This document shows positions 9,052 to 51,843 of a stretch of DNA of 55,561 nt, piece after piece. Source of the stretch: a virus. The notes beneath the pieces were generated by a model. That model ran no database searches. It was not told the origin of the DNA and saw nothing but the letters and a program-made list of their open reading frames with translations. A program made the position numbers and the translations under genes. Location of the stretch: IMG/VR virus record IMGVR_UViG_3300029705_000157; one strand, written 5' to 3'. Within the stretch, counting starts at the first letter, position 1; each line of letters starts with the position of its first letter.

Positions 9052-9999
9052 TTATGCGCCTGCGCCGTTTTCGTCATCTTCACCGCCTGCGCCGTTTTCG
9101 TCATCTTCACCGCCTGCGCCGTTTTCGTCATCTACAACTTCTTCGCCGATTGTACCAACAACCACACCATCGATACGCTCAGCAAACAATACGATACCAG
9201 ATACAACCGTATCAGATGCAGTCATATTTGTATAATCCGGTGTTTCATGAATGCCAATAAGACCGGTTTCATCTGATGTAAATTCAAATGCTTCATTAAG
9301 GTCCGCTCCATTTACAGGAATGTAATATAGTACAAGGTTGTCAGCTGCTGTAGCGTAAATCTTTCCTTTTGGAACAGAACTGTTGAAAATCACAGTACCC
9401 AGACCAAGAAAATCTTTTACATATTTCATACCGAATGCATTTTGAAGTGAAATGTTCGCAGTTGCTAAATAATCAGCTACGTCAAGCGGATTCATAAAAT
9501 ATACTGCCTGGATTTCATCATCTTCAAAAAGGACCTGAAGCTGTCCCCACGCTTGCGCAAGCGTTGCCTGGAATGTTTCTCCGTCCGCTTTTCCTGTACC
9601 TGTAGCTACAAAATCAAAAAATGCTTTTCTTACGCCCTTTTGAATGTCTTTAAGCATTGCATCTTTTGTCATAACTACTGCCTGATTATAACCTTTTTCG
9701 ATAATTGCTTCTGCTGATGTAGCTTTTCTCCACTTCTTCAGCGTGATTTCTTCAAAATCAACAGGCTCTGTCACATATTTAGATAACGGAATAAGATCGC
9801 CTTCTGCTACATTTCCATCCTGTAAAGTTCCTGTCGCTTTGTACGCTTTTAATACAGTACCTGCAACCTTTGGAATTTTTCTAGTTACGCCAAGGGCTTC
9901 CATAAGTTTTTTAATACTTTCACCAAAACGATAAGTGAAATCAATCTCTCTTGCTCTTGCAAGGTCTTCTTTTTTAATTAAATTTTCTTCTGCCGCCAT
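9052..9999 (-). CDS. Major capsid protein with a repetitive acidic C-terminal tail
   Basis: 315 aa, following the scaffold gene. The length and position fit an HK97-fold capsid protein. The C-terminus is (GGEDDENGA)x3. Confidence 0.8.
   Translation of the reverse strand: MAAEENLIKKEDLARAREIDFTYRFGESIKKLMEALGVTRKIPKVAGTVLKAYKATGTLQDGNVAEGDLIPLSKYVTEPVDFEEITLKKWRKATSAEAIIEKGYNQAVVMTKDAMLKDIQKGVRKAFFDFVATGTGKADGETFQATLAQAWGQLQVLFEDDEIQAVYFMNPLDVADYLATANISLQNAFGMKYVKDFLGLGTVIFNSSVPKGKIYATAADNLVLYYIPVNGADLNEAFEFTSDETGLIGIHETPDYTNMTASDTVVSGIVLFAERIDGVVVGTIGEEVVDDENGAGGEDDENGAGGEDDENGAGA
9058..9138 (-). repeat. Three tandem 27-bp coding repeats at the 3' end of the capsid gene
   Basis: The unit gcctgcgccgttttcgtcatcttcacc starts at 9058, 9085 and 9112. 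The last copy diverges at its end. Confidence 0.9.
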
Positions 10000-20306: not shown

Positions 20307-20623
20307 GCGCTACCCTATGACAGGAATATAAACCGCCTTTTGTCGGTGTTTGCTGGATGGCCGTGCGTTCTTGTGGTTTACATAATACAATCAACCTTGT
20401 ATGACAAATATGAACTTTTTGTAAACGAACCTAAAAATCAAACAAAAACCCAAGAAAATTTAGGATTATTTCTGAATCGATTTTCCTATAAAAAATAGGT
20501 ACCGGGGGGGGGTACAAAATTTCTTGCAATTTTTTTGTGGTATTTTCGAAAAAAATTTTTTTGATTTCTGAATTTTGAATCGATACCCACGGGGGTATCA
20601 AAAAACGATGCTTTAAAATAGAA

Positions 20624-25212: not shown

Positions 25213-26448
25213 TCAATATGATATCGCACGTTTGATTTGCTCCTTTTTCTCTTCTTCGGATAGATTATCAAACGAGTAATAGCTTCTTGTAGTGGATATA
25301 TCTTTATGACCCATTTGCTTCATTATCAATCTTTCGTTCACATTTGCATTTATCAATTTAGTCGCATATGTTTTTCTCGCTTTATGTATCGATTTCGGAA
25401 CTATATTTAGTTTGTTACATATCCGATACAACTTATGCGAAAAAACATATTCTTTTATTCGATATCCGTGAGAATCTGTAAATAGATATTCCGAAAAAGG
25501 ATTTATCTTTTTTATTTCGTTAAGAATACAAATGCACTCGTCACTTATTACAACATCTCTATATCCGGCTTCCGTTTTGGGGGCTTCTCTTATTTCATAC
25601 ACTGTACTTCCATCATCAATCTTATAATGAATTTCCGTCTTTGTAATGTATATTCTTCTCCTCTTTAGATCGAAATCCTTATAAGATAATGCAGCTAATT
25701 CTCCAGAACGCAACCCCGTATGAAACGCAAGTAAAATGCCAAGATTTACGATGTTTCGCTTACAGGAATAAATATATTCAACAATTTTATTTACTTCTTC
25801 ATTTGTGAATACTTCTTTTGAATCTGTGCGATATACTTTTTTAAATAGTTTAGATGATAATTCCAAATCGCCCATAAAATTAGTTATACTTATTTTTGTG
25901 TACCCTTTTTTCTTTGCGTATTTGAATAATCCAACTATAATAATCCGTAGGTTTCCCCATGCCTTTGCGGTCAATTGTTTTTCATGTATAGTTTGTCTAA
26001 TGAAGTCTTCAAGTTCGTCTTCTGTGATATATTGAAATCTTATTTTTGATATTTTTGAACCATCTATAAATCGGTTAAAATCCATTTCGTATCTATCATA
26101 TGTCTGCTTTTGTATTTCTCCATACTTCAATTTTCCATCAATCCATTCATAAAATACTCTTTTTAAATATGGTGCGTTTTCGGATTCTTTGTAATGGTTT
26201 ACAACAGCATCAATGATAGATGATTCTGTTTTTCTTTTTATCAGCCGCCTTCCTCTATTATATTTTTCATCTGGAAGATACGTGTACCAACTACCGTCTT
26301 TTCCTTTCCAGATTTCATTTTGGTGCATTTCCAGATATTTCAATCTTTCATTCATTTCAATCTGCTTCTGGATGGTGTTAATATCAATCATACCATTATC
26401 GATTGCATATTTCAATAATTCACTATTTGATAATTCCATCAACACCAC
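25213..26448 (-). CDS. int: Tyrosine recombinase (phage integrase)
   Basis: Catalytic-region motifs HTGLRSGELAAL, HKARKTYATKL and MGHKDISTTRSYY (R..H-x-x-R..H..Y). Confidence 0.9.
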   Translation of the reverse strand: MVLMELSNSELLKYAIDNGMIDINTIQKQIEMNERLKYLEMHQNEIWKGKDGSWYTYLPDEKYNRGRRLIKRKTESSIIDAVVNHYKESENAPYLKRVFYEWIDGKLKYGEIQKQTYDRYEMDFNRFIDGSKISKIRFQYITEDELEDFIRQTIHEKQLTAKAWGNLRIIIVGLFKYAKKKGYTKISITNFMGDLELSSKLFKKVYRTDSKEVFTNEEVNKIVEYIYSCKRNIVNLGILLAFHTGLRSGELAALSYKDFDLKRRRIYITKTEIHYKIDDGSTVYEIREAPKTEAGYRDVVISDECICILNEIKKINPFSEYLFTDSHGYRIKEYVFSHKLYRICNKLNIVPKSIHKARKTYATKLINANVNERLIMKQMGHKDISTTRSYYSFDNLSEEEKKEQIKRAISY

Positions 26449-28034: not shown

Positions 28035-29215
28035 CTAATATTTAATATTCAAATTTCCATGTTCATTAATCCAGTCGATCACTTCTTTGTAATTTAAGCC
28101 GCCTTGTTCACAAGGCCGCATAATGTAATCATATTGTTTCGGATGCGTTTCTTTCATTCTCACAAATCTGTCATCACCACGAATATGAGCACCAAACCCG
28201 CAAAACATACATCCGGTTCTTTTACAACCAGTCGTTTTCAGTATTGGTATTCCAATATCAAACACACCTAAATCGCTTGATAATTCGGACATATCCATCT
28301 GACCGTCCAGCTGTCCCATTGATTTATAATCCTTGACAATTTCACCGTAAACAGATGCTATTGGAATATTGTTTTCATAAATATACAAAAGAACATCTTG
28401 TTCAGTCCAAAACGACATCGGTTTACTTTCTGAATGTTTAGAGTTAAAAGAATTACATCCAAATTGTAACCATTTTTGTGTCCTCAGTCTGCTTTCCGTT
28501 GCCATTGTTGCAATAATTGGTTTTCTTCCTGTTTTTCTTTCGTATTTATTAGCTGGGGACTTTTTCATTATGTTGCAACAATTGTCTGATATATCAAATG
28601 GAGATTCTAATAAAAACTCATATTTCCTCATTGAAAATTGACTTCTATCTGCTGTGTGGTTAGGGATAATCGCCTTTCCTGTTTTGCTTAACATCCCTAA
28701 GATAATTGCTACTCTCTGTGGACTTCCTTTCGTCTTTCCCCAATCTTTGTTTAGAATATTCGCCAATTCCGCATACTCTTCTATAGTTGTAGGAATACGG
28801 AAGCCTGGGTCTGTCTGTCTGTCTGTCTGTCTGTCAAAATTCTAAGATATTTTTTCGCTCCGTCAACATTGTTAGAAACTTCTTTTGAAATAAATGGATA
28901 GCCATATTTATGAATGACTTCTTTAAAATTCATCTTCGGTTTAACAACATCCACATTATCAAAATTTTTTACGAACTGTCTTATTTCTGGATATTCAAGA
29001 CCAGTATCAATAAATACAGCTTTAATATTAGGATACATTTTTCTTGCAATATCAAGCAAAACTGTGCTGTCTTTTCCACCAGAAAAACTTATGTACACCC
29101 CATCTATTCCGTATTCTTCCACCCATTCTTTAATCCTGAGTTTTGTTTTCTCGATCTTCACGGATAATGGCAATGATTGTAGAATCTGCAATTCTTGTAA
29201 TGTGTGCTTAGCCAT
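28035..29215 (-). pseudogene. PAPS reductase-like (PP-loop ATPase, IbrA-like) gene split by a frameshift inside a (GACA)n tract
   Basis: The N-terminal ORF (28781..29215) carries SFSGGKDS. The C-terminal frame (28035.., open back to the repeat) carries DISDNCCNIMKKSP, ATMATESRLR, GCNSF and FWTEQDV. One extra 4-nt unit fuses the two frames. Confidence 0.75.
28809..28835 (-). repeat. Tetranucleotide simple sequence repeat (GTCT)6.75 on the plus strand, (GACA)n on the coding strand
   Basis: gtctgtctgtctgtctgtctgtctgtc read directly. It encodes TDRQTDRQT in the upstream frame. Confidence 0.95.
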
Positions 29216-29226
29216 AACTCCTCCTA

Positions 29227-31038
29227 TTAATTAAACGGTGTTTCTTCATTAGGTACAACAAATCCATCACCTTTGTACCATCCGTATTCCTTATGAAGAT
29301 TATCCCCGTCACCATATATTCTTTTTGATCGTTCATCATAATTCAGTGTGTAACCAGTTGTACACGTTTTACCAAATACTCTGTTCTTTGAAACCTTGCA
29401 TAATCTTTGGGATTCTGATATTTCCGAATCTTTTCCGTAAGAAATTACTATGGACGCAAGATTTATAATGTCAGCAGAACCACTTGTTTCATCATTCTCA
29501 TTTGTAGAAAAATTGTTTTTTCTCTTATGAGCAACCAATATAATCCACGCTCCATGCCTAAGTGCCATTCTTGCCAGTTTCTTTACGAATAGACTTTGAC
29601 GTTCATATTTATCAGAACCATGAGATTCTTCCAAATCAATCGCCGTCATAAGGTTATCCAGCAATACAACGTCAACCCCATATTGCATAATTACATTTTC
29701 TGTAGTCGTTATAAGACTCTCTTTCTCGTCACCGTCGATTATGGAATTGTCGTATAAAAAGCATCTGTCACGATACCATGCAGCGATTTCAGATTTGTTT
29801 GTTTTGGAAACTCTGTAACCTTTATCGCCCCATCTATTCTCAAAATCCGTAACGTGATACGGACCGGCAATTTGGAAATCAATCCAAGACTTAAAAAGAT
29901 AATTTGGAAGTTCGCCGGAATAAGCAAAACATTTATGTTCCTGTTCCAATGAGTTAATCAGAATCTGACTTGCAAGAGTACTCTTACCTTCGCCAGGCTT
30001 ACCATGTATAATAATCACGCCGCCAGCCGGTAATCCGCCGTATAACAGCTTGTCGATTTGATTTATTCCTGTTGCCAGTTTTGGAATTTCGAAAATATCC
30101 ACATCTTCCACATCCGCAAGGTCTATAACCCGTTTCATCGGAACCACAATGGCATTTTCAACACATTGTTTGACTTGCTCCGCTCCATATTTCTGCAAGA
30201 TTTCATTCGCATCTTTGCAGTCCTTGTAATCCTCGTATCTTACGTGCTTAACCTTTGTTTTTAAACGTCTTGACAATTCTTCTAGCAAAGACATCTTTCC
30301 ATTTTCATAATCACCAAACACGATCATTTCTTCAAACTTGTTTATCCAGTTCCAACAATAGGGCAACCATGTAAATCCCTGTGCCCCTGTTGGAACCGAT
30401 ACTGCATTATTTATTCCAGCCGTTGAAACAGATAACGAATCAATCTGACCTTCGCATACAATAAGCCTTGTAAAATCTTTGCATTGCTTCATTCCGAATA
30501 AAATCGGCTTGCAGTCAGCTTCGCACCATTCCTTGTTTTTATCCTTTGTCTTATCAAAATCCGTCTTGCGATATTTCACAAATTGCATCTTGCCTTTTTC
30601 GTCATAGAATGGAAAAACAAGAATATTCGGTTTGTTGTTCCATGTGGTTATCTCATACTCTTTTGCAACTGCTTCCGATATTGCACGACTTTCCAAATAT
30701 GTAACTGCTTCTGATTTTGGAACTATTGGTTTTTCTGGAGTTTTCAAAGTACGATATTTTTTTCGTGGTCTGTAATATTCGTCCACCTGTTGACCTAGCG
30801 AAAAATCAAAGTCTTTCGCAAGTGTAATCATATTTCCAGTAACACCGCATGAAGCACGTAAACATTTATATTGACCTGTTTTAAGGTTTATGGAAAATGT
30901 ACCCTTATCTTTTTTTGAACCACCTCTACAATAGGGGCAATAGGTAAATCTTAATTCATCTCCATTTCTTCTTGCTGAACCACCTGTTTCTCTTACAAAT
31001 CTGTACGCATCATCTTGGTTAAATTCATAAATACTCAT
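29227..31038 (-). CDS. Bifunctional primase-helicase (Zn finger + Toprim + RecA-fold/DnaB-like ATPase)
   Basis: CPYCRGGSKKDKGTFSIN...CLRASCG zinc finger, Toprim LIVCEGQIDSLS, Walker A HGKPGEGKST. Confidence 0.85.
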   Translation of the reverse strand: MSIYEFNQDDAYRFVRETGGSARRNGDELRFTYCPYCRGGSKKDKGTFSINLKTGQYKCLRASCGVTGNMITLAKDFDFSLGQQVDEYYRPRKKYRTLKTPEKPIVPKSEAVTYLESRAISEAVAKEYEITTWNNKPNILVFPFYDEKGKMQFVKYRKTDFDKTKDKNKEWCEADCKPILFGMKQCKDFTRLIVCEGQIDSLSVSTAGINNAVSVPTGAQGFTWLPYCWNWINKFEEMIVFGDYENGKMSLLEELSRRLKTKVKHVRYEDYKDCKDANEILQKYGAEQVKQCVENAIVVPMKRVIDLADVEDVDIFEIPKLATGINQIDKLLYGGLPAGGVIIIHGKPGEGKSTLASQILINSLEQEHKCFAYSGELPNYLFKSWIDFQIAGPYHVTDFENRWGDKGYRVSKTNKSEIAAWYRDRCFLYDNSIIDGDEKESLITTTENVIMQYGVDVVLLDNLMTAIDLEESHGSDKYERQSLFVKKLARMALRHGAWIILVAHKRKNNFSTNENDETSGSADIINLASIVISYGKDSEISESQRLCKVSKNRVFGKTCTTGYTLNYDERSKRIYGDGDNLHKEYGWYKGDGFVVPNEETPFN

Positions 31039-33910: not shown

Positions 33911-34909
33911 TCATGTAACTATTTCCTTTCTATCCATAAGCTGTTTTATTGTCAGACCATCTGCCCATGGCGTATAGTCCATGAAATCACAAGATTTAAA
34001 AACAAATCTGTTATTGCACCATCTTTGCAAATGTCTCAAGATATGATTCTTTGGAAGGCTATTCTTTCTGTATATGCGAACATCTGGAAGATAACCTAAT
34101 TCTCTTACAGTTTTGATTCTGTAAATGTCTTGATCGAAAGTGGTGTCATAATTCGTAAGAATATAAACGATCATTTTGTTTTCATTAACAAACAGTTTTT
34201 CTTTTACTTTCTTCAATCCATCGACAATCTTCTTTTCATTCTTCATGGTATCAAAAGCAAAATGAATTCTTTTGATCTTTATTTTGTTTAAAATCTCCAA
34301 ATTATTGTCATTTACAAACTTTGCATCAAGGCCTTGTGTAAAATCCACAAACGCTCCACTTTCCGATAATTGATTAAGCAAATACATGTGTTCCTTGCAA
34401 GCCAGAATATTGGGATCTAATAGTTTTATAAATTTCTGTCCATTCCAAAACTCATATAAATCAGCAACCCTTTTAGAGCATCTACCTTCCTTTTTGCTGA
34501 CAATGCAAAAATCGCAGTTATTGCAGCAACCTCTTGTTAAAAAACCGTAAGCTGTATTTTTGGTGTGTTCTGGATAAATGGAATAGTCTGGAAACATATG
34601 TTCAATTTCATCATTAAGATTTTTATGATTAGCATGATCAAAAATTTCAACACCAGATTCAACATTTATAAAATAGCCTGTACCACCTTTTACAATCTTT
34701 TTAGCATTCACATGATACGGATAGTCTTGTGTGTATTCCGCGCCAAATACTTTTGACATATACACAACATCTAACGGCTCACCCATTCCATGTATCAATG
34801 GTTCATACCACGCAACCTCATCACCTTTTTGTTTGTGCCATGCAGATATTTTCATCAGTGGAATGCTTGGAAAGTTGTGTCCATCAACATCTATTAGACC
34901 AATTTTCAT
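33911..34909 (-). CDS. Radical SAM enzyme of unknown function
   Basis: CxxxCxxC cluster motif in GFLTRGCCNNCDFCIV. GGGGAGG lies before the ATG of MKIGLIDVDGH. Confidence 0.6.
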   Translation of the reverse strand: MKIGLIDVDGHNFPSIPLMKISAWHKQKGDEVAWYEPLIHGMGEPLDVVYMSKVFGAEYTQDYPYHVNAKKIVKGGTGYFINVESGVEIFDHANHKNLNDEIEHMFPDYSIYPEHTKNTAYGFLTRGCCNNCDFCIVSKKEGRCSKRVADLYEFWNGQKFIKLLDPNILACKEHMYLLNQLSESGAFVDFTQGLDAKFVNDNNLEILNKIKIKRIHFAFDTMKNEKKIVDGLKKVKEKLFVNENKMIVYILTNYDTTFDQDIYRIKTVRELGYLPDVRIYRKNSLPKNHILRHLQRWCNNRFVFKSCDFMDYTPWADGLTIKQLMDRKEIVT

Positions 34910-35091
34910 GTAACCTCCCCACATTTCCAGCTTTTCGGGCAAGTGCTAAAATTTCTTCCACACAGTTTAATTAATTTGCACTCGTCACAATCCTTGATTT
35001 TCTTTGTGTATTCCGACAATCCCGATATGTATTCTTTTAACATCTTCGATTCAAATTCGGGCGTTGTCTGTTCGTTGATAATCTCTATCAT
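34906..35091 (-). CDS. Small Cys-containing hypothetical protein
   Basis: 61-aa ORF. Confidence 0.3.
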   Translation of the reverse strand: MIEIINEQTTPEFESKMLKEYISGLSEYTKKIKDCDECKLIKLCGRNFSTCPKSWKCGEVT

Positions 35092-35110: not shown

Positions 35111-36466
35111 TCATCCAAATGCCACTTGACCATTTATTTGTTCAAAAATAATTGGTGACGGCATCCTTTCTCCTATTTTTAAATAACCGCAATTAGCTTT
35201 TACTAATGCTTCTGCCATTACAGGAACCACACTGTTTCCTATTCTCTTTACTTGCTCTACGATTGGATATTTTTGCCAGTTATAGTCGCGATCAATGATG
35301 TAATCTCTTGGAAAACCTTGCAACACTTTCAGTTCTTCCGGCTTAAGCATTCTTAAAAAAATATCAGAAATAATATATTTTTCTCCATCAATCTCCACGG
35401 AAACATTTACAAGACCAAATCTATCCTTTGTTGTAATAGTTCCAAGTGGTTTTGACAATTATTGACCGCATCCAGTTCCGTAATACTTGATTAAAAACGC
35501 ACTTATAAGACCAAAATGCCCAGGAGAAGTTGTTATTGTGTGCAGTGGGTCACTGCATGAATGCCCTATTCCAGTTTTATAAAATTTTGTAATAAAAGCA
35601 GTAACAAGACCATATCTGTTAGATGTATCAATTGTTCTTATTGGCTCAGTTAGTAACTGACCTCTGGAATCTCCAGCTTTTTGTTCTCCGTGGTATTGAA
35701 TCATAAATGCTAACGCATCCTTGTTTTTGACTATGTATGGATTTGGATTTTCTATGATATACTTTCTTATTCCATTTGCAATTCTTTTTTGCGTAGCTTC
35801 CGCAAGTGGTTTAGGTCTGTCAAATATGCTCTTGCCTAAATCAGACCAATCAATATAATTCCCGCATTCCAACCAGTTCTCTTTTTTATGCGTAACTTCC
35901 GGCCATACAATTGGGTTACCATCTCTTCGGAAAATTGCATACCATCTTTTTCTTGTTGTTGGCGCTCCGTAATCTGCTGCTACCAATTCTTTTGAATCAA
36001 ATCTATATCCGATTGATTTCATGGAATCAATGAACTTATTGTAATCTTCGCCTTTTCTTTCTGGTATCGGACGTCCTTTCTCATCGAGTGGACCCCATTG
36101 CTGAATCTCTTCCACATTCTCCATTATTATTACATCTGGAAGAATCTTCTTTGCGTGCTTATAAACTGCCCATGGAAGAATCCTCAATCCTTGCATCCTG
36201 GGCTGACCGCCTTTTGCCTTGCTATGGCTTGTGCAATCCGGTGATGCCCACATAAGAGATACGTGTTGACCTTTTACATACTTTTGTAAATCAACTTTAA
36301 ATATATCCTCAGTCAAATGCAGCGTATTTGGATGATTGGTCTGATGCATTCTAATCGCCTGCGGATCGTGATTAATCGCAATGTCAACCGGTCTACCAAG
36401 TGCCATTTCTATTCCAACACTCGCACCGCCGCCACCGGCAAAACAATCAATAATTAATCCGTTCAA
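35111..36466 (-). pseudogene. DNA (cytosine-5)-methyltransferase interrupted by one in-frame TAA (35459-35461)
   Basis: The upstream part has motif I DCFAGGGGAS, motif IV SPDCTSHS and motif VI IMENV. The downstream part has QGFPRDY and GNSVVP. Junction: ...GGT CAA TAA TTG TCA..., all in the same frame. Confidence 0.8.
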
Positions 36467-40826: not shown

Positions 40827-41852
40827 TCATACCTCCAATAATTCTTTTACCAATAAATCCATTGAATGACATAGTTTAATGCAATTTCCATGCAACGCAT
40901 GATTCTTCCACGCATTGTACTTTTCAAAAAACTTTTGTTCAGACATCTTTCCGTCCTTAACAGCCTTAGCCCATACCCTTATCTTTTTTCGGATTCTACG
41001 CTTGTTTTCTCCCGACAACTTTCTTATGTATTTACCGTCTTTTGTTATGTAATGATGAAAACCAAGGAACCTTAATCCATTTTTGAACGGAACTATCTGT
41101 GTCTTTCCGTTCAATTCCAGTTTCAAATCTGATAACAAATTTTCTATTTCCTTAAGGCATTTCTTTAAATAATCCTTATCATGGAAAATCAAGTAGAAAT
41201 CATCCATGTATCGTCCGTACAGTTCGATTCCTAATTTCTCGGTTATCATGTGATCCATTCCATCAAGCATTAACAGTGCATACACCTGAGCAACTTGATT
41301 TCCTAATGGAAGTCCTAAACCGTCTGTGCTATCAATAAAAAGATGATTTAACCATTTTGTGTATTCGTCTGGAAAATAACTGTCCACAATCTTTTTCAAA
41401 ATCTCATGGTCTATTTGGTAGAAAAACTTCTTAATATCACATTTGAGAATCCATCCGTCAAGACCATGTGATTTGTAAAACTGCAACATCTGCTCTTTCA
41501 AACAATCCATCCCGAAATGAGTGCCTTTTCCAATCTGCCCGGCATAGTTTGTCCTTATAAATATATCGGACAATCTCGGATGCAGTATTTCATCACATAA
41601 ACAATGCTGCACCACTTTGTCCTTAAAAGAACAAGATTTAATCAATCTTTCTTTTGGTTCGTAAATCATAAATTCATTGTATGGATTGATTTTGTATGTA
41701 CGATTTTCAAGCTGTTCCTTTAACATGTGGAGTCCTTCAAGACTCATTGTTTGAAACCTCGCACAACTTCCATTATTCGACTTACCGGATTTTGCTTTCT
41801 TATAAGCCTTGTATAGATTTTCAAAACTGCATACAATACTTTTGTCATCCAT
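40827..41852 (-). CDS. DGR-type reverse transcriptase
   Basis: RT motifs ILKCDIKKFFYQID, GLPLGNQVAQVYALLML (the DGR-typical LGxxxSQ-like motif 4) and YGRYMDDFYLI (YMDD). It lies directly downstream of Avd and the TR. Confidence 0.9.
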   Translation of the reverse strand: MDDKSIVCSFENLYKAYKKAKSGKSNNGSCARFQTMSLEGLHMLKEQLENRTYKINPYNEFMIYEPKERLIKSCSFKDKVVQHCLCDEILHPRLSDIFIRTNYAGQIGKGTHFGMDCLKEQMLQFYKSHGLDGWILKCDIKKFFYQIDHEILKKIVDSYFPDEYTKWLNHLFIDSTDGLGLPLGNQVAQVYALLMLDGMDHMITEKLGIELYGRYMDDFYLIFHDKDYLKKCLKEIENLLSDLKLELNGKTQIVPFKNGLRFLGFHHYITKDGKYIRKLSGENKRRIRKKIRVWAKAVKDGKMSEQKFFEKYNAWKNHALHGNCIKLCHSMDLLVKELLEV

Positions 41853-41950
41853 ATTAAAAATTCCTTTGTATTTACCCTTTTAGGGAGGGTCGCACACCTT
41901 TTTGTATCTTGTACTGATTTCGGCTTATTGCCTACTCTGACTGCCTGTTT

Positions 41951-42026
41951 GATACAGAATGGGCGAACCCCGTTGTTGTTATTGTAGTTGTTGTTGTTGA
42001 TGTTGCCGGACGGCGAAACAACGGTT
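41951..42026 (-). repeat. DGR template repeat (TR)
   Basis: Coding strand: GTT GTT TCG CCG TCC GGC AAC ATC AAC AAC AAC AAC TAC AAT AAC AAC AAC GGG GTT CGC CCA TTC TGT ATC. It is non-coding, lies between Avd and the RT, and matches three gene 3' ends. Confidence 0.9.
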
Positions 42027-42049
42027 TTTACGGTGTGCAACCTATAGCT

Positions 42050-42421
42050 TTATCTTTGTCTATCTTTTGTTCTCCAGGCAATCGACATACGCTTAATATC
42101 AGTTACCATCTTTGACCAGTATTCCATTCTTTGTTTGTTTATTATGTTTAGTTTTACGGATAATTCTATGTAAAACAGTAACTGATCGCAGTATGTTATC
42201 GCCCTAGTCTGCAATTCTAATCGATGTCTTTTGTAATCCCTTATATCCGTTCTGTTTGCTTCTTGAAGATATTCATAAATCTCAAGTGATTTATTCTGCA
42301 TCTTATCCACTAAAGAAAATCTATATTTCTTCGGATATGTATTGCAATTTGAAGTAACTCGAAGCGTATGTTCGGCAAGTTCCATTGATTTTAGAATTAC
42401 TTTTAAATCTGTATCCGACAT
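42050..42421 (-). CDS. avd: Accessory variability determinant (Avd, four-helix-bundle family)
   Basis: 123-aa basic helical protein between the target gene and the TR. The position and size are canonical for Avd. Confidence 0.8.
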   Translation of the reverse strand: MSDTDLKVILKSMELAEHTLRVTSNCNTYPKKYRFSLVDKMQNKSLEIYEYLQEANRTDIRDYKRHRLELQTRAITYCDQLLFYIELSVKLNIINKQRMEYWSKMVTDIKRMSIAWRTKDRQR

Positions 42422-43027
42422 TTAATCATCCTCGGATTCAAAGAGATCAGATGAGAAGATGCAAAATGGGCGAACCCCGAGGCTGCCATTGCAGCCGTCG
42501 TCGTAGAAGCGGCCGGACGGCGAAACAACGCGTACCCATCTACTATCATCGTTGCAGGCTGTACTGTCCGCTGTGATAAGCCACCACCAATAACCGGCGT
42601 TCGGAATGTATTCTCTGTACTTTCTATATTCATCCACATTCAATAAGGAAACCTTATCTTCACAACGACCATATTCTTTCTGACCGTCCATTGATAATAA
42701 GTCTCTTTCAAATGATACAATGTTTTCTTCTCCAACCTCTTTTTCCAGTTTTTCAAGAAATTCCGAGTTCAGATATTTTCTTAAACTGCTATTCGACCAG
42801 TTATTGCAAGAAGAATCAAATTTCATATCTTCCGGCAATTTTTCGGAAAGACACAAGTAACCATTCTCTGTAATATCAAGAATTTTACACTCCAAATCAG
42901 CAAGAGTAAAAGTATCCCCAACTTCCAGTTTTTTTTGAATTTCCTTGATTGGTTTACTCGTGATTTTTGAAACAATCTTTTCGAGTTCTGCGAGTCTTGA
43001 TTCTATTGTTTTTGCTTTTACTGCCAT
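42422..43027 (-). CDS. DGR target protein 1 (coiled-coil N-terminus, C-type-lectin-fold-like C-terminus carrying VR1)
   Basis: C-terminus GYWWWLITADS...VVSPSGRFYDDGCNGSLGVRPFCIF. No signal peptide. The W..SSLRKYLN motif is shared with its paralogues. Confidence 0.85.
   Translation of the reverse strand: MAVKAKTIESRLAELEKIVSKITSKPIKEIQKKLEVGDTFTLADLECKILDITENGYLCLSEKLPEDMKFDSSCNNWSNSSLRKYLNSEFLEKLEKEVGEENIVSFERDLLSMDGQKEYGRCEDKVSLLNVDEYRKYREYIPNAGYWWWLITADSTACNDDSRWVRVVSPSGRFYDDGCNGSLGVRPFCIFSSDLFESEDD
42461..42530 (-). repeat. Variable repeat VR1
   Basis: Same length as the TR. There are 14 mismatches, all at TR adenines: CGC TTC TAC GAC GAC GGC TGC AAT GGC AGC CTC. Confidence 0.9.
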
Positions 43028-43028
43028 A

Positions 43029-43661
43029 TCATTTATCCCCTTTCGATACAAAGATATTAGATTTTAAGATACAAACCGGGCGAACCCCGCCGTCGTCATT
43101 GCAGCCGATGCCGTCGTAGATGCAGCCGGACGGCGAAACAACGGACATACGATACTTATATCCACGTTCCGCACTAGACCATGGCGTACATGTCCACCAC
43201 CAATCGTCAAGCTCTTTATTGACGATCAATTCATTGTACTCTCGTGCTTCATCAAAAGTGATCGGACGAACCTTGCATATGCACGATTCAAATTCATGCT
43301 GCATATCCACAGATGTCAAATCAACTTCGTGTTCCACAATGTTTTCTGCCCCAATAGATTCACTTATAATAGGTAGAATCTCTGATTCGATTTTTTTCTT
43401 TAAATTTGATTTCCCGTAATCTCTAGCATCAAAATCAAAAACAACGTCTTCCAACATAAATCCTTTGGAAATCACTTTTGTTTTTCCAAGCGATTCATAT
43501 TGCTTCAAAACAATAAAATCATGATCGCCAATTTTAAATGTATCTCCCGGTAATAGTTCCGACAATGCAACATCTGTTGAACTACACTTGCACTTACAAT
43601 TTTTCTCTTTTTCTTCTAATACCTTTACAAGTTCTTTTGCCATTTCTAATTCTTTGCTCAT
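43029..43661 (-). CDS. DGR target protein 2 (paralogue carrying VR2)
   Basis: C-terminus DDWWWTCTPWSS...VVSPSGCIYDGIGCNDDGGVRPVCI. No signal peptide. Confidence 0.8.
   Translation of the reverse strand: MSKELEMAKELVKVLEEKEKNCKCKCSSTDVALSELLPGDTFKIGDHDFIVLKQYESLGKTKVISKGFMLEDVVFDFDARDYGKSNLKKKIESEILPIISESIGAENIVEHEVDLTSVDMQHEFESCICKVRPITFDEAREYNELIVNKELDDWWWTCTPWSSAERGYKYRMSVVSPSGCIYDGIGCNDDGGVRPVCILKSNIFVSKGDK
43071..43146 (-). repeat. Variable repeat VR2 (one codon longer than the TR)
   Basis: TGC ATC TAC GAC GGC ATC GGC TGC AAT GAC GAC GGC. With a one-codon gap in the TR, every mismatch falls on a TR adenine. Confidence 0.8.
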
Positions 43662-43680
43662 TCCATTTCCCTCTCTTTGC

Positions 43681-43968
43681 TTAAAATACAATTAATGTGA
43701 CTGACAAAAATCCAATAAACCATACAATCAAGGTATATATAATATCTGTTATCAGTTCTTCTATTAATTTTTCTGTTTTTCTCCTGTTCGTAGGTAAAAA
43801 CCATAAAACAATTAAAGAAAACGCCCATCCTTGCCAAAACGTAAATGTTCTCAAATCAAACAATTGGCATATTATGTTGTTCCAAAGATAAATTGTTACA
43901 AAGCCGGTAAGCACAAAATCAATAAGATATAAAATAATTCCTATTAAAGCCTTTGCTGTTTTTTTCAT
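43681..43968 (-). CDS. Small multi-pass membrane protein
   Basis: 95 aa with three hydrophobic helices. Confidence 0.4.
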   Translation of the reverse strand: MKKTAKALIGIILYLIDFVLTGFVTIYLWNNIICQLFDLRTFTFWQGWAFSLIVLWFLPTNRRKTEKLIEELITDIIYTLIVWFIGFLSVTLIVF

Positions 43969-45909
43969 TTACGCCACCTCCACTTTTAATTCTTTATCTT
44001 CTGAAACACACATCATAATCAGCTGGCAATCCATATCAATCTTCGCTTTTGATTTGGAGTCAAGACATTCCGCATTATCAAGAAATACCGGGTAAAATCT
44101 TCCGTAAAACTTCTGCAAGCCTTTAACAATATCCAGCTTTGCGAGAACTTCCAAACCAGTATTTGTACATTCGCCAAATCGCTTTCCGTTAATTGTCGGA
44201 ATGCAAATTTCCTTGTATTCGCCGTTTTTCTGATATTCAAAAAATTGCCATTTTACAACATCAAAATTACTATTAATCTCTTCCGTAAGAAGATTGTTCT
44301 TCATCTTTCCGATTTCTTTAATCTGATCAAGAATATCTTCACAATCGGCAAGTGCCTGTTCATACTCGATCTGCTTTTTACGGAGTTCTGCGATCTGTTC
44401 ATCAATCGCATCGTTATTAGACGCACGGAAAATCTCGCTTTTTACTTCATCCAGTTTGGATCGTATTTCTTTTTCTTCGATTTTCAGCTGACTTCTTGTA
44501 TCATCTGCAATGTTTCCAGCAATCATGTGTGATTCTTTTTCTTTAATCTCAGAAACAATGCGTTTATATTCGTCTGTATCGGAAATGTTGATTTCATCTG
44601 GAAGTTTTTTAATTTCTGTATCAACTGCATTCCAAAGAATGTGCAATTCATTTTCGTGTTCTTTGAGTCGTTCACGTTCTTCTTTTAAACCCTTTAACGC
44701 TTCCGTGTATTCCACAACAGCATTCTTGAAAATAGTTCCGCAGTCTGTAATCTTTTGCATTTCCGTAGATTTTCTTGCAGCGAAATTACTTCTTAATTTC
44801 TCCACATCTTCTACAGGCAATGGTTGCCCACACAAAGAACAAATTGCAGAATTTTCATCAAAAAATGTTTCGTTCCACTTGGACCATTCAACTCTTGTGT
44901 CGGAAAGTTTCTTATTAAAAGATTCAATCTGTCGTTCGGTATCTGATATGGTCATTTTGTTCGCCGTTATCTTTCCTTCATTAGCTTTAATCTGATAATC
45001 CAAATCACGTTTTTCGGAATTTAATTTGTTTCTCTTTTCCTGTAATTCAGCATTTGCACTTCTCTGAATATCGCCAAGTTTGAATTTTAATTCCATGATT
45101 CCATCAGACATTTTTTTCATTTCTTCGTACCGTTTGGAAATGTCCTGCTGCATACTCTCATTTTTTTCTAATAATTCTTCAAAGTGTCGCTTTTTTAATT
45201 CCAAATCAGAAACATCTACACGGTATTTAGCTGATTCCAGCCCAGCAATCTTAGCCATAATAATCTCTCCGTCTTTGCCGTAATCTTCACGGATTTTACG
45301 CATTGTAGACTTCTGCATTGCTTCAATTTCACTCATTTTGTAATTAGCAAGGAGTTCCGCAACCTTTTGTGTGCGTGACTGCATTTTTGCAATTTCCAAA
45401 TCCGTATAAGAATTTCTTGCCATGGAAAAGAGAATAGACCTTGCGATTTCATCTCTTGTCTTTTTCTCAAACGTGTATCTCAGAAACATATCCGGATGAC
45501 TGAGTATCAGCATTTTTTCAAAGTCAATACCAATATCTTCAAGATAAGATTTAAAATCACGCTCTGTCTTTTCAACAGCATTCACTTCATAGCTGTTCGT
45601 GATAGTCACACGTGTTTTATCCTTGGAAACCTTGCGTTTCTGCATTTTAGAAACCGTTACTGGTTTATTTCCAACCATAAATTCCAATGTTACCGTAGGT
45701 GTACATTCTCTTCCGTCATTTGGACGGATATTAGGATTGCTTTTCAAATCGTAGCTTTTATCAAAAAACAACCAATAAAAAGCATCTGCCATGGTTGTTT
45801 TCCCTGCACCGTTACATCCCGATATAACAGTTTTGTCTTTAAATATGTATTTTTCTTGAGTTGCGCCCTTGAAGTCTTGCAGACGCATTTCTAATAGCTT
45901 TGTTTTCAT
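43969..45909 (-). CDS. SMC/SbcC-like AAA ATPase with a long coiled coil
   Basis: Walker A GCNGAGKTT at the N-terminus, about 350 aa of heptad-rich sequence with a CxxC (CSLCGQ) hinge, and Walker B-like VFLDNAECLD at the C-terminus. Confidence 0.7.
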   Translation of the reverse strand: MKTKLLEMRLQDFKGATQEKYIFKDKTVISGCNGAGKTTMADAFYWLFFDKSYDLKSNPNIRPNDGRECTPTVTLEFMVGNKPVTVSKMQKRKVSKDKTRVTITNSYEVNAVEKTERDFKSYLEDIGIDFEKMLILSHPDMFLRYTFEKKTRDEIARSILFSMARNSYTDLEIAKMQSRTQKVAELLANYKMSEIEAMQKSTMRKIREDYGKDGEIIMAKIAGLESAKYRVDVSDLELKKRHFEELLEKNESMQQDISKRYEEMKKMSDGIMELKFKLGDIQRSANAELQEKRNKLNSEKRDLDYQIKANEGKITANKMTISDTERQIESFNKKLSDTRVEWSKWNETFFDENSAICSLCGQPLPVEDVEKLRSNFAARKSTEMQKITDCGTIFKNAVVEYTEALKGLKEERERLKEHENELHILWNAVDTEIKKLPDEINISDTDEYKRIVSEIKEKESHMIAGNIADDTRSQLKIEEKEIRSKLDEVKSEIFRASNNDAIDEQIAELRKKQIEYEQALADCEDILDQIKEIGKMKNNLLTEEINSNFDVVKWQFFEYQKNGEYKEICIPTINGKRFGECTNTGLEVLAKLDIVKGLQKFYGRFYPVFLDNAECLDSKSKAKIDMDCQLIMMCVSEDKELKVEVA

Positions 45910-46096
45910 TTTCTTTCCTCCATTCTTCTATCCAGCAATCAATCTCCCCTAATACAATCCAAATCAATATTCCAGCAAGAATACCGACCAGCCAAAGATT
46001 ATCTTTAACCTCCCACCACGAATCAACTGTGGTTATCGAATAACCGCTTATGGCTCCTATAATCATGTTTTTAATGGTTTCTTTAATAAGTTTCAT
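45839..46096 (-). CDS. Small membrane protein
   Basis: 85-aa ORF with two hydrophobic segments. Its 3' end overlaps the ATPase start. Confidence 0.3.
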   Translation of the reverse strand: MKLIKETIKNMIIGAISGYSITTVDSWWEVKDNLWLVGILAGILIWIVLGEIDCWIEEWRKENENKAIRNASARLQGRNSRKIHI

Positions 46097-46407
46097 AATG
46101 CCCTTCTCCTAAACTTATCTAATGTTTTTTTTACCCCTGTCCTTTTGTGAATAACCTTCAAATAAAAATCCGTTACGTCATAACACATCCATTCTTTTGG
46201 ATTCATATAATGTGCAGACACACATTCTTTTTGACTACGTGTTAACCTCTTCGGCTGTTTCATTTTCCACCACTCCTTTTCGGAAACCTTTGAAAAATTC
46301 TCTTAAGGCAAACAATCCCAAGCACGCAATTTGTAAAACAAGCATACCAACCGCACCAACGATAATTCCTGTTGCAAAATTCATATTCGTCACCTCTCAT
46401 TCTTCAA

Positions 46408-46905
46408 TCAAGATTCAAAGATGGAAGATGGAAAGATACAAACCGGGCGAACACCGTTGCGGCTGCGGCAATTGAAGATGTCGAGTATGCGGCCGGACGG
46501 AGAAACAACGGCGTGCAAATATTTATATCCATTACATGGCGTGCTCCATGGTGTAATCAGCCACCACCAGTCATTCATGTTAGGTAAATATTTTCTGTAT
46601 CTCTGATACTCATGCTCGGTAATCAGCGACGCAAAGTCCTTACAAGTTCCGTATTCCGTCTGTCCATCAACCGACATCAGATCACGTTCAAACTCAACCA
46701 GTTTAACGCCTGCATCTTCAATCTTTTTACAAAAATCCCCATTCAGATATTCTCTAAGGCTTGATTTTCTCCAGTCGTTTGAATCATCATCAAAAACCTT
46801 ATCCCCGATTGATTCTTCGGTAATCGCCAAATAGCCCTGTTCTGTTTTATCCAGGATTCTCCATTTAAGTCCTGCGATTTCTTTAATTGTTCCAATGTTA
46901 TTCAT
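46408..46905 (-). CDS. DGR target-like protein 3 (remote paralogue carrying VR3)
   Basis: WRKSSLREYLN...NDWWWLITPWST...VVSPSGRILDIFNCRSRNGVRPVCIF. Confidence 0.75.
   Translation of the reverse strand: MNNIGTIKEIAGLKWRILDKTEQGYLAITEESIGDKVFDDDSNDWRKSSLREYLNGDFCKKIEDAGVKLVEFERDLMSVDGQTEYGTCKDFASLITEHEYQRYRKYLPNMNDWWWLITPWSTPCNGYKYLHAVVSPSGRILDIFNCRSRNGVRPVCIFPSSIFES
46435..46513 (-). repeat. Variable-repeat-like VR3 (diverged)
   Basis: GTT GTT TCT CCG TCC GGC CGC ATA CTC GAC ATC TTC AAT TGC CGC AGC CGC AAC GGT GTT CGC CCG. One extra codon and at least four non-adenine mismatches to the TR. Confidence 0.65.
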
Positions 46906-48910: not shown

Positions 48911-49702
48911 TTGAAAAACGAAAAATCAAAAAATATTCGCTTGAATTTGGTGTCAAATCACGAAAATTACATGGAAAGTTTCCGTGATAACATCGGAATT
49001 TTACGAACTGATTTTGGTTGGTCTGTGAGAGTTTTAGCAGAAAAAGCTAATATATCAGAAGACACGCTTCAAACATTTTTAAAGGGAAAATCTAAAGACT
49101 GCAATTTGTCAACGGCGGTAAAATTAGCAAGGGCGTTTGGAATTACAGTAGATGAATTGATTGGTGCAGAAACTATGGACCCACAGACTCAAGAATCCGT
49201 AGCTATGTCTTCTAATCTAAAAGACCATCATAGATATGTTATTCGTGCTTACGTTAAGCATCAATACAAGATACATGGTGATGTTCCTAAGACAAGCAAA
49301 CAGATTTCAGTAATGATGCCAGAATGCCATCACGGATATTTGAAAACTACTAATGTTACCGAAGCATTAAACATAGACCATCTGTACGATAGCACACGAT
49401 CAAAAGTATGCCTTGGTTTACGTGTTCCATGCGCACACTACGAACCATATTATATGCAAAACGAAATTCTTTTACTTGCCGCAGACCGTGACGGACTTAA
49501 CAATGAACGATGTGTCATTACTCATGCTGGAAATTTCTACATATGCATCAAGCGTATTATAATTGAAAATGGCAAAAAATCGGTAAAATATTTGTCGCTC
49601 ATGGACGGAAGAAACGTGCTATTTGACCATGATGAAATAGATGATAAGATTGGATATGTTGTTGGATTCTTGTACCCAGATGGCGCATGGGGTGTTCGAT
49701 AA
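48911..49702 (+). CDS. HTH (XRE) protein with a LexA/CI-like C-terminal domain that lacks an obvious Ser-Lys dyad
   Basis: LAEKANISEDTLQTFLKGKSK HTH. The C-terminal beta-rich domain has no GxSM-type motif. TTG start after GGAGGGA. Confidence 0.6.
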   Translation: MKNEKSKNIRLNLVSNHENYMESFRDNIGILRTDFGWSVRVLAEKANISEDTLQTFLKGKSKDCNLSTAVKLARAFGITVDELIGAETMDPQTQESVAMSSNLKDHHRYVIRAYVKHQYKIHGDVPKTSKQISVMMPECHHGYLKTTNVTEALNIDHLYDSTRSKVCLGLRVPCAHYEPYYMQNEILLLAADRDGLNNERCVITHAGNFYICIKRIIIENGKKSVKYLSLMDGRNVLFDHDEIDDKIGYVVGFLYPDGAWGVR

Positions 49703-50285: not shown

Positions 50286-50545
50286 TCACTCACCCCCAGT
50301 AAGATACGACCTGCTTCGGCATATTCATCATTGATGTCGATATCAGTGGTAGGTTCGTCAATTTCCGTAAACTTATTTGGACTATCCGTATCAATACAAG
50401 CGTAAGTAGCAACACCATCCGTAAGAACTTTTCCTTTGTCTGCAATAAGTCTATAGACTTCCGTGTAGTCACCATCTGGCTTTTCGGTAGATACTGTTAC
50501 CTTGCCCGCTTCTCGTTCATATCTGTATAATTTTTTAATCTCCAT
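50282..50545 (-). CDS. Hypothetical protein
   Basis: 87-aa ORF, translationally coupled on both sides. Confidence 0.35.
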   Translation of the reverse strand: MEIKKLYRYEREAGKVTVSTEKPDGDYTEVYRLIADKGKVLTDGVATYACIDTDSPNKFTEIDEPTTDIDINDEYAEAGRILLGVSE

Positions 50546-51843
50546 TAGTTCACCTCATCTAACACTTCAAGTTTTGTGACACAGAAACCATTAAAGGATA
50601 AAGGTATGCAATAAATACCAGCTTTTGGTATCGTTATATTCGGGAATCCATCATAGGATAATTCCGTATTATCTATAGATACGCCAATAATGGCTCCGTT
50701 AAATTTCATCCATGTACTAGGTTGACTTGATGATGTTGAATCGTCTACATCTTCTTCGAAAACTGTTATATTTCCGTTATTAATAGTTGTTATTTTAATG
50801 GATTTATGCGTAAATATCGGATAATAGTCACACACCTTATAGATAGTCACATTCATAACATCTGTAGCAATTTCAACATGTTCTAACCCATCAGTTGTAA
50901 CACCATCCCATTCAAGAACAGTCTTGTATTCATCAGATGGTTCTACATAGTTATAATTAATAGTAGCATTGGTAGCACCCCAAGGAGCGTTTGATACTTC
51001 GCCTTCTGACCATGGTACGTTGATAGTAAGGAGGTTGGTGCAGTCTTTAAAGGCATCTGATGATATTGATCGAGGCTTTACAGTAAATGTCATTTGTGTT
51101 AAATCAGTACATCCACGAAAAGCTTGTGTACTGATTTGTGTAATTCCTTCGGGCAAAGATGTTAATGCTAGACTTGTACAGTTTTGAAAAGCATACGAAC
51201 TGATGTCGTTTAGCGTTGCTGGTAATGATGTTAATGCTAGACTTGTACAGTCACGAAAAGTGCTATTGTTGATAGTTGTAATTCCTTCGGGCAAAGATGT
51301 TAATGCTAGACTTGTACATTTTTGAAAAGCATACGAACCGATGCCGTTTAGCGTTGCTGGTAATGATGTTAATGCTAGACTTGTACAGTTTGAAAAAGCG
51401 TTACTGTTGATACGTGTAATTCCTTCGGGCAAAGATGTTAATGCTAGACTTGTACAGTTTTGAAAAGCATACGAACTGATGTCGTTTAGCGTTGCTGGTA
51501 ATGATGTTAATGCTAGACTTGTACAGTTTGAAAAAGCGTTACTGTTGATACTTGTAATTCCTTCGGGCAAAGATACTGATATCAGTTTCTCACATCGTTC
51601 GAAAGCACTTGTGCCTATTTTTGTAGTTCCTTCTGGTATAACAACATTAACAATCGTTCTCTCTACAATGTTTTTCAGTATTTCAGCCCATTCGTCATCG
51701 CTAGAACCACCGCTTTGAATCGCCATAATAGCACCACTCATTTGAGATGGCTTATAGGTTTCTTCTGTACCATTTTTTTCACGGATAGCATCTGCAATGT
51801 CTCTCATATAACTTTCATCTATAAATACATTAGCCATTACCAC
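50545..51843 (-). CDS. BspA-type leucine-rich-repeat protein (receptor-binding candidate)
   Basis: Repeated 23-aa units such as [23 protein letters not shown] and [23 protein letters not shown]. It lies in the tail-fibre block. Confidence 0.75.
51140..51553 (-). repeat. Three near-identical tandem 138-bp coding repeats (each encoding two LRR units)
   Basis: Units start at 51140, 51278 and 51416, with a partial fourth at 51554. The first ~111 nt of copies 1 and 3 are identical. Confidence 0.9.

Follow-up and report, generated by a model that had tools for sequence, protein, structure and literature searches.

In the 55,561-nucleotide stretch of IMG/VR virus record IMGVR_UViG_3300029705_000157 (hereafter the window), a gene for a PAPS-reductase-like PP-loop enzyme is interrupted by a tetranucleotide tract, (GACA)n, whose length decides whether the two halves of the gene are read as one protein. 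We found a perfect simple sequence repeat of non-triplet period inside the open reading frame (ORF), unit numbers that differ among near-identical genomes, and changes in unit number that toggle the intact (ON) frame, with the interrupted (OFF) state restorable by one change of the tract. We therefore regard it as highly likely that a temperate gut phage here carries a true contingency locus of the slipped-strand type.

An earlier note, written from the DNA letters of the window, had described a perfect (GTCT)6.75 repeat on the plus strand at 28809..28835, and Tandem Repeats Finder returned exactly this interval (period 4, 6.8 copies, unit GTCT, 100% matches). No other tetranucleotide run in the window, whose GC content is 37%, reaches three units, and a perfect 27-nt run of period 4 is not expected by chance in 55 kb (rough estimate ~1e-9). 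With the 6 units present in the window, the N-terminal ORF, which contains YISFSGGKDSTV, acquires the out-of-frame 8-residue tail QASVFLQL and terminates 8 codons past the tract, its C-terminal end reading TDRQTDRQTQASVFLQL before the stop. The C-terminal frame, which contains DISDNCCNIMKKSP, ESRLR and GCNSF, is silent in this state. Re-reading the frames from the sequence gave the same upstream stop, at 28781, and the same downstream frame open into the repeat that the note had reported.

Editing the tract in silico yielded a single ORF at 4, 7 and 10 units (390, 394 and 398 amino acids (aa), respectively), a stop after 140, 144 and 148 aa at 3, 6 and 9 units, and a stop after 179, 183 and 187 aa at 2, 5 and 8 units, in line with the proposal that adding one unit or removing two would join the frames. 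The Pfam profile PAPS_reduct matches the N half with its positions 3-75 (E 9e-12, 45.8 bits) and the C half with positions 78-168 (E 4e-7, 30.8 bits). The two pieces thus complement each other as halves of a single domain, which bears out the idea of a single divided PP-loop enzyme, and the full-length ON allele reaches 73.2 bits against PF01507 (gathering cut-off 22.5).

Alleles of all three frame classes given by this editing exist in nature. We searched a collection of 5.8 billion proteins with the in-silico 7-unit product, fetched the encoding contigs and counted their units directly. The search returned a 394-aa protein (P0001) with 100% identity over 100% of the query, together with further 100%-identical fragments of 243 and 219 aa. 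The direct counts were 7 units, with an intact ORF, in contigs L001 and L002, 6 units in the window, L003, L004 and L005, and 8 units in L006 and L007, whereby the 25-nt flanks of the tract are identical in the window and in all of L001-L007. When aligned to the window with blastn, the contigs have 0 mismatches over 917-4852 nt, and their sole gap (4 or 8 nt) is the tract.

An exact look-up of every allele product predicted for 3 to 12 units placed the 144-aa 6-unit product on 16 contigs (one of them 55,719 nt long), the 394-aa 7-unit product on 2 and the 187-aa 8-unit product on 2, and found no product of any other unit number from this range in the collection. This phage is ON in 2 of the 20 contigs and OFF in 18. 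A mixture of 6, 7 and 8 units in related assemblies had been named beforehand as the test of phase variation, and it is what we observed; in-frame alleles exist, and the homologues are single ORFs rather than two naturally separate genes. Nine additional 6-unit loci match the window exactly save for one substitution. Across 14 distinct aligned contigs (~46 kb), tract length aside, one substitution separates them from the window, against at least two independent length changes within the 27-nt tract, which by rough estimate makes the tract some three orders of magnitude more mutable per base.

Unequal unit numbers also occur under neighbouring sample identifiers, as in Ga0187908 (6) and Ga0187909 (7), Ga0216340 (6) and Ga0216341 (7), and Ga0257076 and Ga0257091 (both 6) beside Ga0257089 (8), and among ENA assemblies ERZ27248306 has 8 units and ERZ27248314/370/436/446 have 6. 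The consecutive numbering suggests that these samples come from shared projects.

The switch site extends to the whole gene family, whose DNA we checked in IMG/VR, GTDB genomes and JGI/ENA metagenomes. In an alignment of 33 full-length homologues with 60-76% identity (A1), the peptide TDRQTDRQT..., where TDRQ is the in-frame translation of (GACA)n, stands at the same position in nearly all sequences and is followed by a linker of variable length, and at least two periodic units occupy the site in 52 of 114 full-length cluster representatives (at least 54% identity). The peptide follows the unit, with TDRQ encoded by GACA, DRPT by GACC, KQAS by CAAG, AGRQ by CAGG, RAEQS and HSTAQ by the pentanucleotides GAGCA and CACAG, and RE by GA. 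At the DNA level, located 330-450 nt into the gene, we found mostly (GACA)3.5-29.5, and otherwise (GACC)10, (CAAG)10-13.5, (GAGCA)10, (GA)9.5 and 21.5, (AT)16 and G9, as well as (GAGAGACA)6.75 at a contig end, immediately upstream of the C-terminal half. The units are 1, 2, 4, 5 or 8 nt long, none a multiple of three, and tracts are perfect up to 118 nt.

Among close relatives whose flanking peptides agree, the unit number varies (19.5 in L014 compared to 4.5 in L016; 9.5 in L180 compared to 21.5 in L184), as it does among L183/L194/L203/L185. Homologues that carry a non-triplet repeat at this site share 45-75% identity, and shorter relatives below roughly 46% identity, which include all the cultured phages in INPHARED, have neither the insert nor the repeat. 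By blastn and tblastn, INPHARED held no match above 46% protein identity and no cultured phage with the tract-bearing subfamily. A separate search of metagenome contigs missed the contigs of this phage itself (its top match was 62% identical) and served for the family census only. Without selection for mutability, it is difficult to account for a non-triplet repeat that is kept at one site through several replacements of its unit.

Some members of the family carry a second frameshift-prone tract, a G8-G9 run read as RGGG, 60-200 nt past the first. A GACA tract is combined with poly-G in L041/L247, L195/L242, L206, L239 and L266, two poly-G runs occur in L010/L011/L174/L177, and in some contigs the segment between the tracts is out of frame with both gene ends; these homologues seem to have a two-tract switch. 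In the 8-unit allele of the present phage (L006/L007, 187-aa product), the +1 frame after the tract (window 28660-28808, minus strand) reads TDRPRLPYSYNYRRVCGIGEYSKQ and ends in GDYP. This tail resembles PY(R/K)Y(F/W/Y)Y(E/D)(K/R)V(T/C)G(T/L)GKY, a main-frame module of other homologues, and also the +1 frame of a 'TT.NIE..EELANILN' segment in several relatives, and may reflect either a tandem duplication that is read in two frames or a product that serves as an alternative isoform. A strict regular expression found an A-like motif in a non-main frame at 12 of 244 loci only and missed the tail of the window itself. Considering the module-like 8-unit tail (LPYSYNYRRVCGIGEYSKQ...) and the second poly-G run, the family switch may have more than two states.

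An earlier set of loci, ranked by protein score, over-represents intact (ON) genes, and we superseded it with a scan of IMG/VR viral contigs for bare (GACA)6 that is blind to reading frame. It found at least 119 tracts; among the 119 listed, 57 lie in the PAPS-like gene, at query residues ~128-145, and 39 complete genes split into 11 ON and 28 OFF. Of the 28 listed OFF genes, 27 have an N frame that runs uninterrupted to the tract and, from the tract onwards, a C frame of 249-298 open codons. As a single change in tract length would restore these genes, their OFF states are young and presumably reversible. Roughly 14-16 of the listed contigs end exactly at the tract (contigs that start or end there include L263, L279, L282, L289, L294, L299, L308, L315, L319, L320, L352, L365, L042, L107 and L235). 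Because several tract lengths in one sample make an assembler break at that point, such ends hint at heterogeneity within samples, and a length mixture within the sample is a suggestive reading of these breaks.

At the protein level, the SGGKDS-type PP-loop, the Pfam score given above and a PAPS/APS-reductase fold place the enzyme in PF01507. An AlphaFold2 model built on the 33-sequence alignment has a mean predicted local distance difference test (pLDDT) score of 87.6 and a predicted template modelling score of 0.82, and the top 23 Foldseek matches in the PDB comprise 22 chains of CysH or APS/PAPS reductases and one of CysD (1zun_A), with a probability of 1.00. In this model, a low-confidence coil at residues 131-145 (pLDDT <50 at 134-137) lies between helices 111-130 and 146-159 and overlaps the tract-encoded residues 128-139, which puts the predicted ON-state peptide, (TDRQ)n, in a disordered surface loop; a second stretch with a pLDDT <50 spans residues 313-322. 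The tract stands at the start of the insert that the shorter relatives lack, and is thus tolerated by the fold. A sequence search of solved structures returned weak CysD and CysH matches. The protein also matches PHROG 424 ('PAPS reductase', E 8e-47), whereas NCBIfam gave CysH, CysD and PP-loop matches below threshold (cysH 33.6 against a cut-off of 165, APS_reductase 30.1 against 235) and Pfam, besides PAPS_reduct, gave only weak PP-loop families. QueC membership was rejected, with partial PP-loop similarity at most. C255 is invariant across the 33-homologue alignment, as are the cysteines C214-C215 and C337/C340, whose CC...CxxC pattern we take to resemble the Fe-S motif of APS reductases; by that analogy, these cysteines may bind a putative Fe-S cluster.

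We tentatively propose that the enzyme may make a DNA modification or act in counter-defence. This role is favoured because the same GACA tract interrupts phage C5-methyltransferase and HsdS genes, because methyltransferases are the commonest neighbours of the gene family, and because a 2026 paper (PMC13551039), citing Piel et al. 2022, has a phage PAPS reductase promoting evasion of Dnd. The same paper places phage PAPS reductases in clusters within anti-defence hot spots. Among the 62 listed tracts outside the PAPS-like gene, 35 lie in C5 cytosine methyltransferase genes, 6 in HsdS genes and 3 in a second PAPS_reduct type, with Pfam supporting the three assignments (the C5 methyltransferase at E 3e-47, HsdS, as Methylase_S, at 3e-38 and the second PAPS_reduct at 5e-25). 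The listed methyltransferase tracts sit after ~260-280 codons and occur both in frame and out of frame, those of the second PAPS_reduct type sit at the 5' end, and one contig has tracts in both the PAPS-like and the C5-methyltransferase gene (L302 and L310). The PAPS and non-PAPS tract loci span L262-L372 (for example, L360, L273, L346 and L340). Because methyltransferase and HsdS genes share this switch, a role in DNA modification or counter-defence is suggested for what is a very common phage gene.

Clustering of all the neighbours at ~240 loci gave three methyltransferases as the commonest, namely a fusion with ParB (34), a C5 type (25) and a Dam type (13), and also HNH, MazG and SSB, names that were all assigned by reading representative sequences rather than by a domain scan. 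The neighbours in the window recur in at most 6 other loci. They include the adjoining genes for a Toprim/AAA_25 primase-helicase and a 175-aa PHROG 17690 protein, and the Shine-Dalgarno sequence of the PAPS-like gene directly follows the stop of the primase-helicase gene, which places the PAPS-like gene in the replication operon. The radical SAM gene (PHROG 9298, E 1e-97) and the C5-methyltransferase gene of the window lie 5-7 kb upstream of the switch gene and run in the same direction, and radical SAM homologues lie near the PAPS-like gene at 5 other loci, including L103, L096 and L107.

In the mechanism that we propose, slipped-strand mispairing during phage or prophage replication would add or drop (GACA)n units, and as the unit is 4 nt long, each step would shift the 255 downstream codons among three frames. 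Tracts of 4, 7 or 10 units would give the full 390-398-aa enzyme, and those of 3, 6 or 9 or of 2, 5 or 8 units a truncated product. Switching would be frequent and reversible within a lineage, so that the enzyme is made in a fraction of the progeny or lysogens as a form of bet-hedging, helpful where the modification shields the phage, and dispensed with where it carries a cost or draws modification-dependent nucleases. More speculatively, one (GACA)n cassette across several DNA-modification genes, sometimes two per phage, might amount to a 'phage phasevarion' in temperate gut Bacillota phages, an idea we hold as possible rather than probable. If it is true, each burst or lysogen population would yield virions with mixed states of DNA modification, a hedge against hosts that restrict unmodified DNA as well as hosts that restrict modified DNA.

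Several points weigh against this picture of a selected switch in a DNA-modification gene. Switching within a clone, its rate and its reversibility are deduced from differences between assemblies, the censuses contain near-duplicate loci, so that their counts are not independent, and there is no direct sign of selection for ON or OFF, whether in the 39 listed family genes or in the 20 contigs of this phage. The tie to DNA modification is drawn from association. Among the ~40 window ORFs scanned with Pfam, PHROGs and NCBIfam, there is no cysteine desulfurase, DndD/E or IbrB, and no SspB/C or PglZ/BrxC/BrxL; no phosphorothioation partner appears among the recurrent neighbours at the ~240 loci, and their clustering revealed no obligate partner gene. 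A desulfurase encoded by the host could stand in for the missing one in a phosphorothioation-like mode of action.

The rival that survives best sees in the tract no more than unstable DNA, a neutral hot spot of mutation in a dispensable gene on its way to loss, with its ON or OFF state non-adaptive. It draws on the frames, which are indistinguishable from random (28% ON, 11 of 39 listed, compared to an expected one-third; p=0.61), on the predominance of OFF contigs in this phage and on the absence of a conserved partner gene. We nonetheless consider it improbable. Permanently silent DNA at 37% GC would lose its open frames, and the intact halves of all but one of the listed OFF alleles thus oppose it; moreover, the non-triplet repeat persists at one loop position across lineages of 45-75% identity while its unit is replaced, the longest tracts remain perfect, and methyltransferase and HsdS genes, classical targets of phase variation, carry the same tract.

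A second rival moves selection from the frame to the protein, in that the selected trait would be the length of the (TDRQ)n linker, changing in steps of three units, and the frameshifted copies its by-products. Besides the disordered loop that the tract encodes, this rival can point to ON alleles that span 3.5-29.5 units and to the in-frame step between the close relatives L014 and L016. Under such selection, however, triplet units would be expected and all the units at the site are non-triplet, ~70% of the listed alleles are out of frame, and the natural steps of this phage are +1 and +2 units rather than +3, which leaves linker length a very unlikely target. Least credible of all is the view that the unit differences are assembly or sequencing artefacts, or that frameshifting by the ribosome or slippage during transcription rescues the OFF alleles and keeps the gene effectively always on: assemblers do err on repeats and some listed IMG/VR contigs end at the tract, but independent assemblies from two pipelines (JGI; ENA k141 contigs) yielded every one of the three lengths two or more times, the tracts of 27-35 nt are far shorter than reads and k-mers, the 6-unit frame meets its stop so soon after the tract and, to our knowledge, tetranucleotide heteropolymers are not slippery sites for ribosomes or RNA polymerase.

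The window is from a temperate tailed phage, as had been supposed, since it encodes an integrase, a CI-like repressor, an antirepressor, a large terminase, a portal protein and an NlpC/P60-SH3 endolysin, in addition to RecT, SSB, dUTPase and a replication organiser. The closest genomic relatives of the PAPS-like gene are in metagenome-assembled genomes of Lachnospiraceae and other Clostridia, and a Lachnospiraceae prophage from rabbit gut (L103) also shares the primase-helicase at 64% identity. The host is probably a member of the Lachnospiraceae or another of the Clostridia.

Table 1 Features of the switch gene and of its surroundings in the window (residue numbers refer to the ON allele).
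Feature	Position	Strand	Remarks
Whole PAPS-reductase-like PP-loop gene	28035..29215	-	Interrupted in the window; one 394-aa ORF at 7 units
Hypermutable tract (GACA)6GAC; (GTCT)6.75 on the + strand	28809..28835	-	Frame-setting element; 6 units = OFF
N-terminal ORF of the OFF state	28781..29215	-	144 aa, coordinates including the stop codon; PP-loop half
C-terminal reading frame	28035..28841	-	268 codons, open from within the tract to the stop; silent at 6 units
Shine-Dalgarno AGGAGG	29220..29225	-	4 nt 5' of the ATG at 29215
PP-loop motif SFSGGKDS	29066..29089	-	Residues 43-50; S43-S50 invariant in 33 homologues
Cys-Cys pair C214-C215	28575..28580	-	Invariant in the alignment
CxxC (C337, C340) within TGCMFCG	28200..28211	-	Invariant in the alignment
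Primase-helicase, Toprim/AAA_25	29227-31038	-	Pfam
Radical SAM protein	33911-34942	-
C5 methyltransferase	35459-36466	-
Integrase	25213-26448
CI-like helix-turn-helix protein	48911-49702	+

Other variable or repetitive elements lie elsewhere in the window. The region 40827-46905 (minus strand) looks like a diversity-generating retroelement, in which a reverse transcriptase gene (RVT_1, 40827-41852) adjoins a 73-nt template-like repeat (41951-42023) rich in AAC codons on the coding strand. Diverged copies at 42458-42530, 43068-43140 and 46435-46507 (78%, 63% and 62% identity) lie at the 3' ends of three genes, with DUF6273 matches for two of them, and in the copy that was compared position by position, the differences from the template are at its adenines. 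With this element and the tract, the phage would have two separate systems of targeted variation. A BspA-type leucine-rich-repeat gene (50545-51843) holds a 138-nt tandem repeat at 51139-51574 (3.2 copies, 94% identity) and adjoins a collagen-repeat gene (51837-52826), and a perfect in-frame repeat of 27 nt (2.9 copies) lies at 9057-9133 within ORF 9052-9999. The longest homopolymer of the window is a G9 run (C9 on the minus strand) at 20504-20512, inside the palindrome GTACC-CCCC-GGTAC in a gene-poor stretch just 3' of a terminator-like hairpin, and may be a second site prone to slippage.

Placed beside known members of its fold, the enzyme has its best matches among CysH proteins (6vpu, 2goy and 4bwv, Foldseek E ~5e-6), with which it shares the PP-loop and a CC...CxxC cysteine pattern resembling that of Fe-S APS reductases. 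It departs from them in its low identity (12-17%), in an insert of ~75 residues that follows residue 128 and in its C-terminus; the 394-aa sequence lacks the catalytic ECG(L/I)H tail, the NCBIfam scores fall below their cut-offs, and the gene belongs to a phage replication operon, not to one for sulfate assimilation, which led us to reject a true CysH. The earlier note had also thought of IbrA-type co-activators. IbrA is likewise a prophage-borne PAPS_reduct protein but combines this domain with DUF3440 and is paired with a ParB-like IbrB. DUF3440 appears in neither half nor in the full-length protein, so it is not of the IbrA type, and there is no adjacent ParB-like IbrB gene in the window, the ParB-methyltransferase fusions being near some family members only.

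The suggested likeness to BREX-type systems holds in part. As in DndC, SspD and BrxP, the PAPS-reductase-like enzymes of DNA phosphorothioation, and in the vibriophage PAPS reductase reported to evade Dnd, there is a PP-loop PAPS_reduct fold with conserved cysteines, encoded in a variable, methyltransferase-rich region, and the PADLOC profiles for BrxP (E 1.8e-14) and SspD (E 1.5e-10) match the PP-loop N-terminus. These matches align only to residues 28-97, and membership of either family was rejected; there is no PADLOC DndC match at E<=0.01 and no DUF4007 domain, and the partners of these systems are missing from the window ORFs scanned. Homologues in Vibrio phages have 27-31% identity over 91% of the protein.

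Simple-repeat phase variation is a textbook strategy of host-adapted bacteria, with the tetranucleotide contingency loci of Haemophilus influenzae and Neisseria as its models (lic1 with (CAAT)n, lgtC with (GACA)n and the Type III mod genes with (AGTC/AGCC)n, or 'phasevarions'). The locus described here shares with these a perfect tetranucleotide tract inside an ORF, slippage by one unit among three frames, unit numbers that vary between otherwise identical genomes and targets that include DNA-modification genes, and with lgtC even the GACA unit. It differs in its carrier, a temperate gut Bacillota phage rather than a host-adapted Gram-negative pathogen, in its PAPS-reductase-like target, and in a switch site that is kept across a family while the unit changes. 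We know of no report of a phase-variable PAPS-reductase-like PP-loop enzyme, and our literature search found neither a phase-variable PAPS reductase nor a tetranucleotide switch in a phage.

The expectation that no comparable phage locus had been described stands for tetranucleotide switches, but not for phage contingency loci in general. In the sole phage report that our literature search found, Gomez, Barrick and Waters (bioRxiv, October 2025; PMC12633550) described homopolymer contingency loci in T2 agt, T4 rIIA and other lytic phages, their candidates being homopolymers of at least 6 bp in virulent coliphages, vibriophages and the BASEL collection. The proposal of phase variation in phages is thus very recent and was confined to short homopolymers of lytic laboratory phages; here we provide a natural, family-wide case in which ON and OFF alleles are visible in public metagenomes of one phage and dozens of its relatives. 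In a 2026 preprint on Bifidobacterium prophages, the phage PAPS reductase is still assigned to sulfur metabolism and its presence is described as puzzling. Gut-virome PAPS reductase genes that look 'split' or 'pseudogenised', now read as sulfur auxiliary metabolic genes, would often be live genes in their OFF phase, and the 4-bp length marker, which can be tracked by amplicon sequencing, offers a tractable system for bet-hedging in temperate phages. In common with the loci of PMC12633550, the one described here places a hypermutable repeat in a phage gene, where reversible frameshifts are read as bet-hedging against host defence; unlike them, it is a long tetranucleotide array (27-118 nt) whose site is conserved, its carriers are uncultivated temperate gut phages, and its allelic states are directly visible in natural populations. 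The mechanism is thus classical, whereas the carrier, the target enzyme and a family-wide conserved site with turnover of its unit appear to be undescribed.

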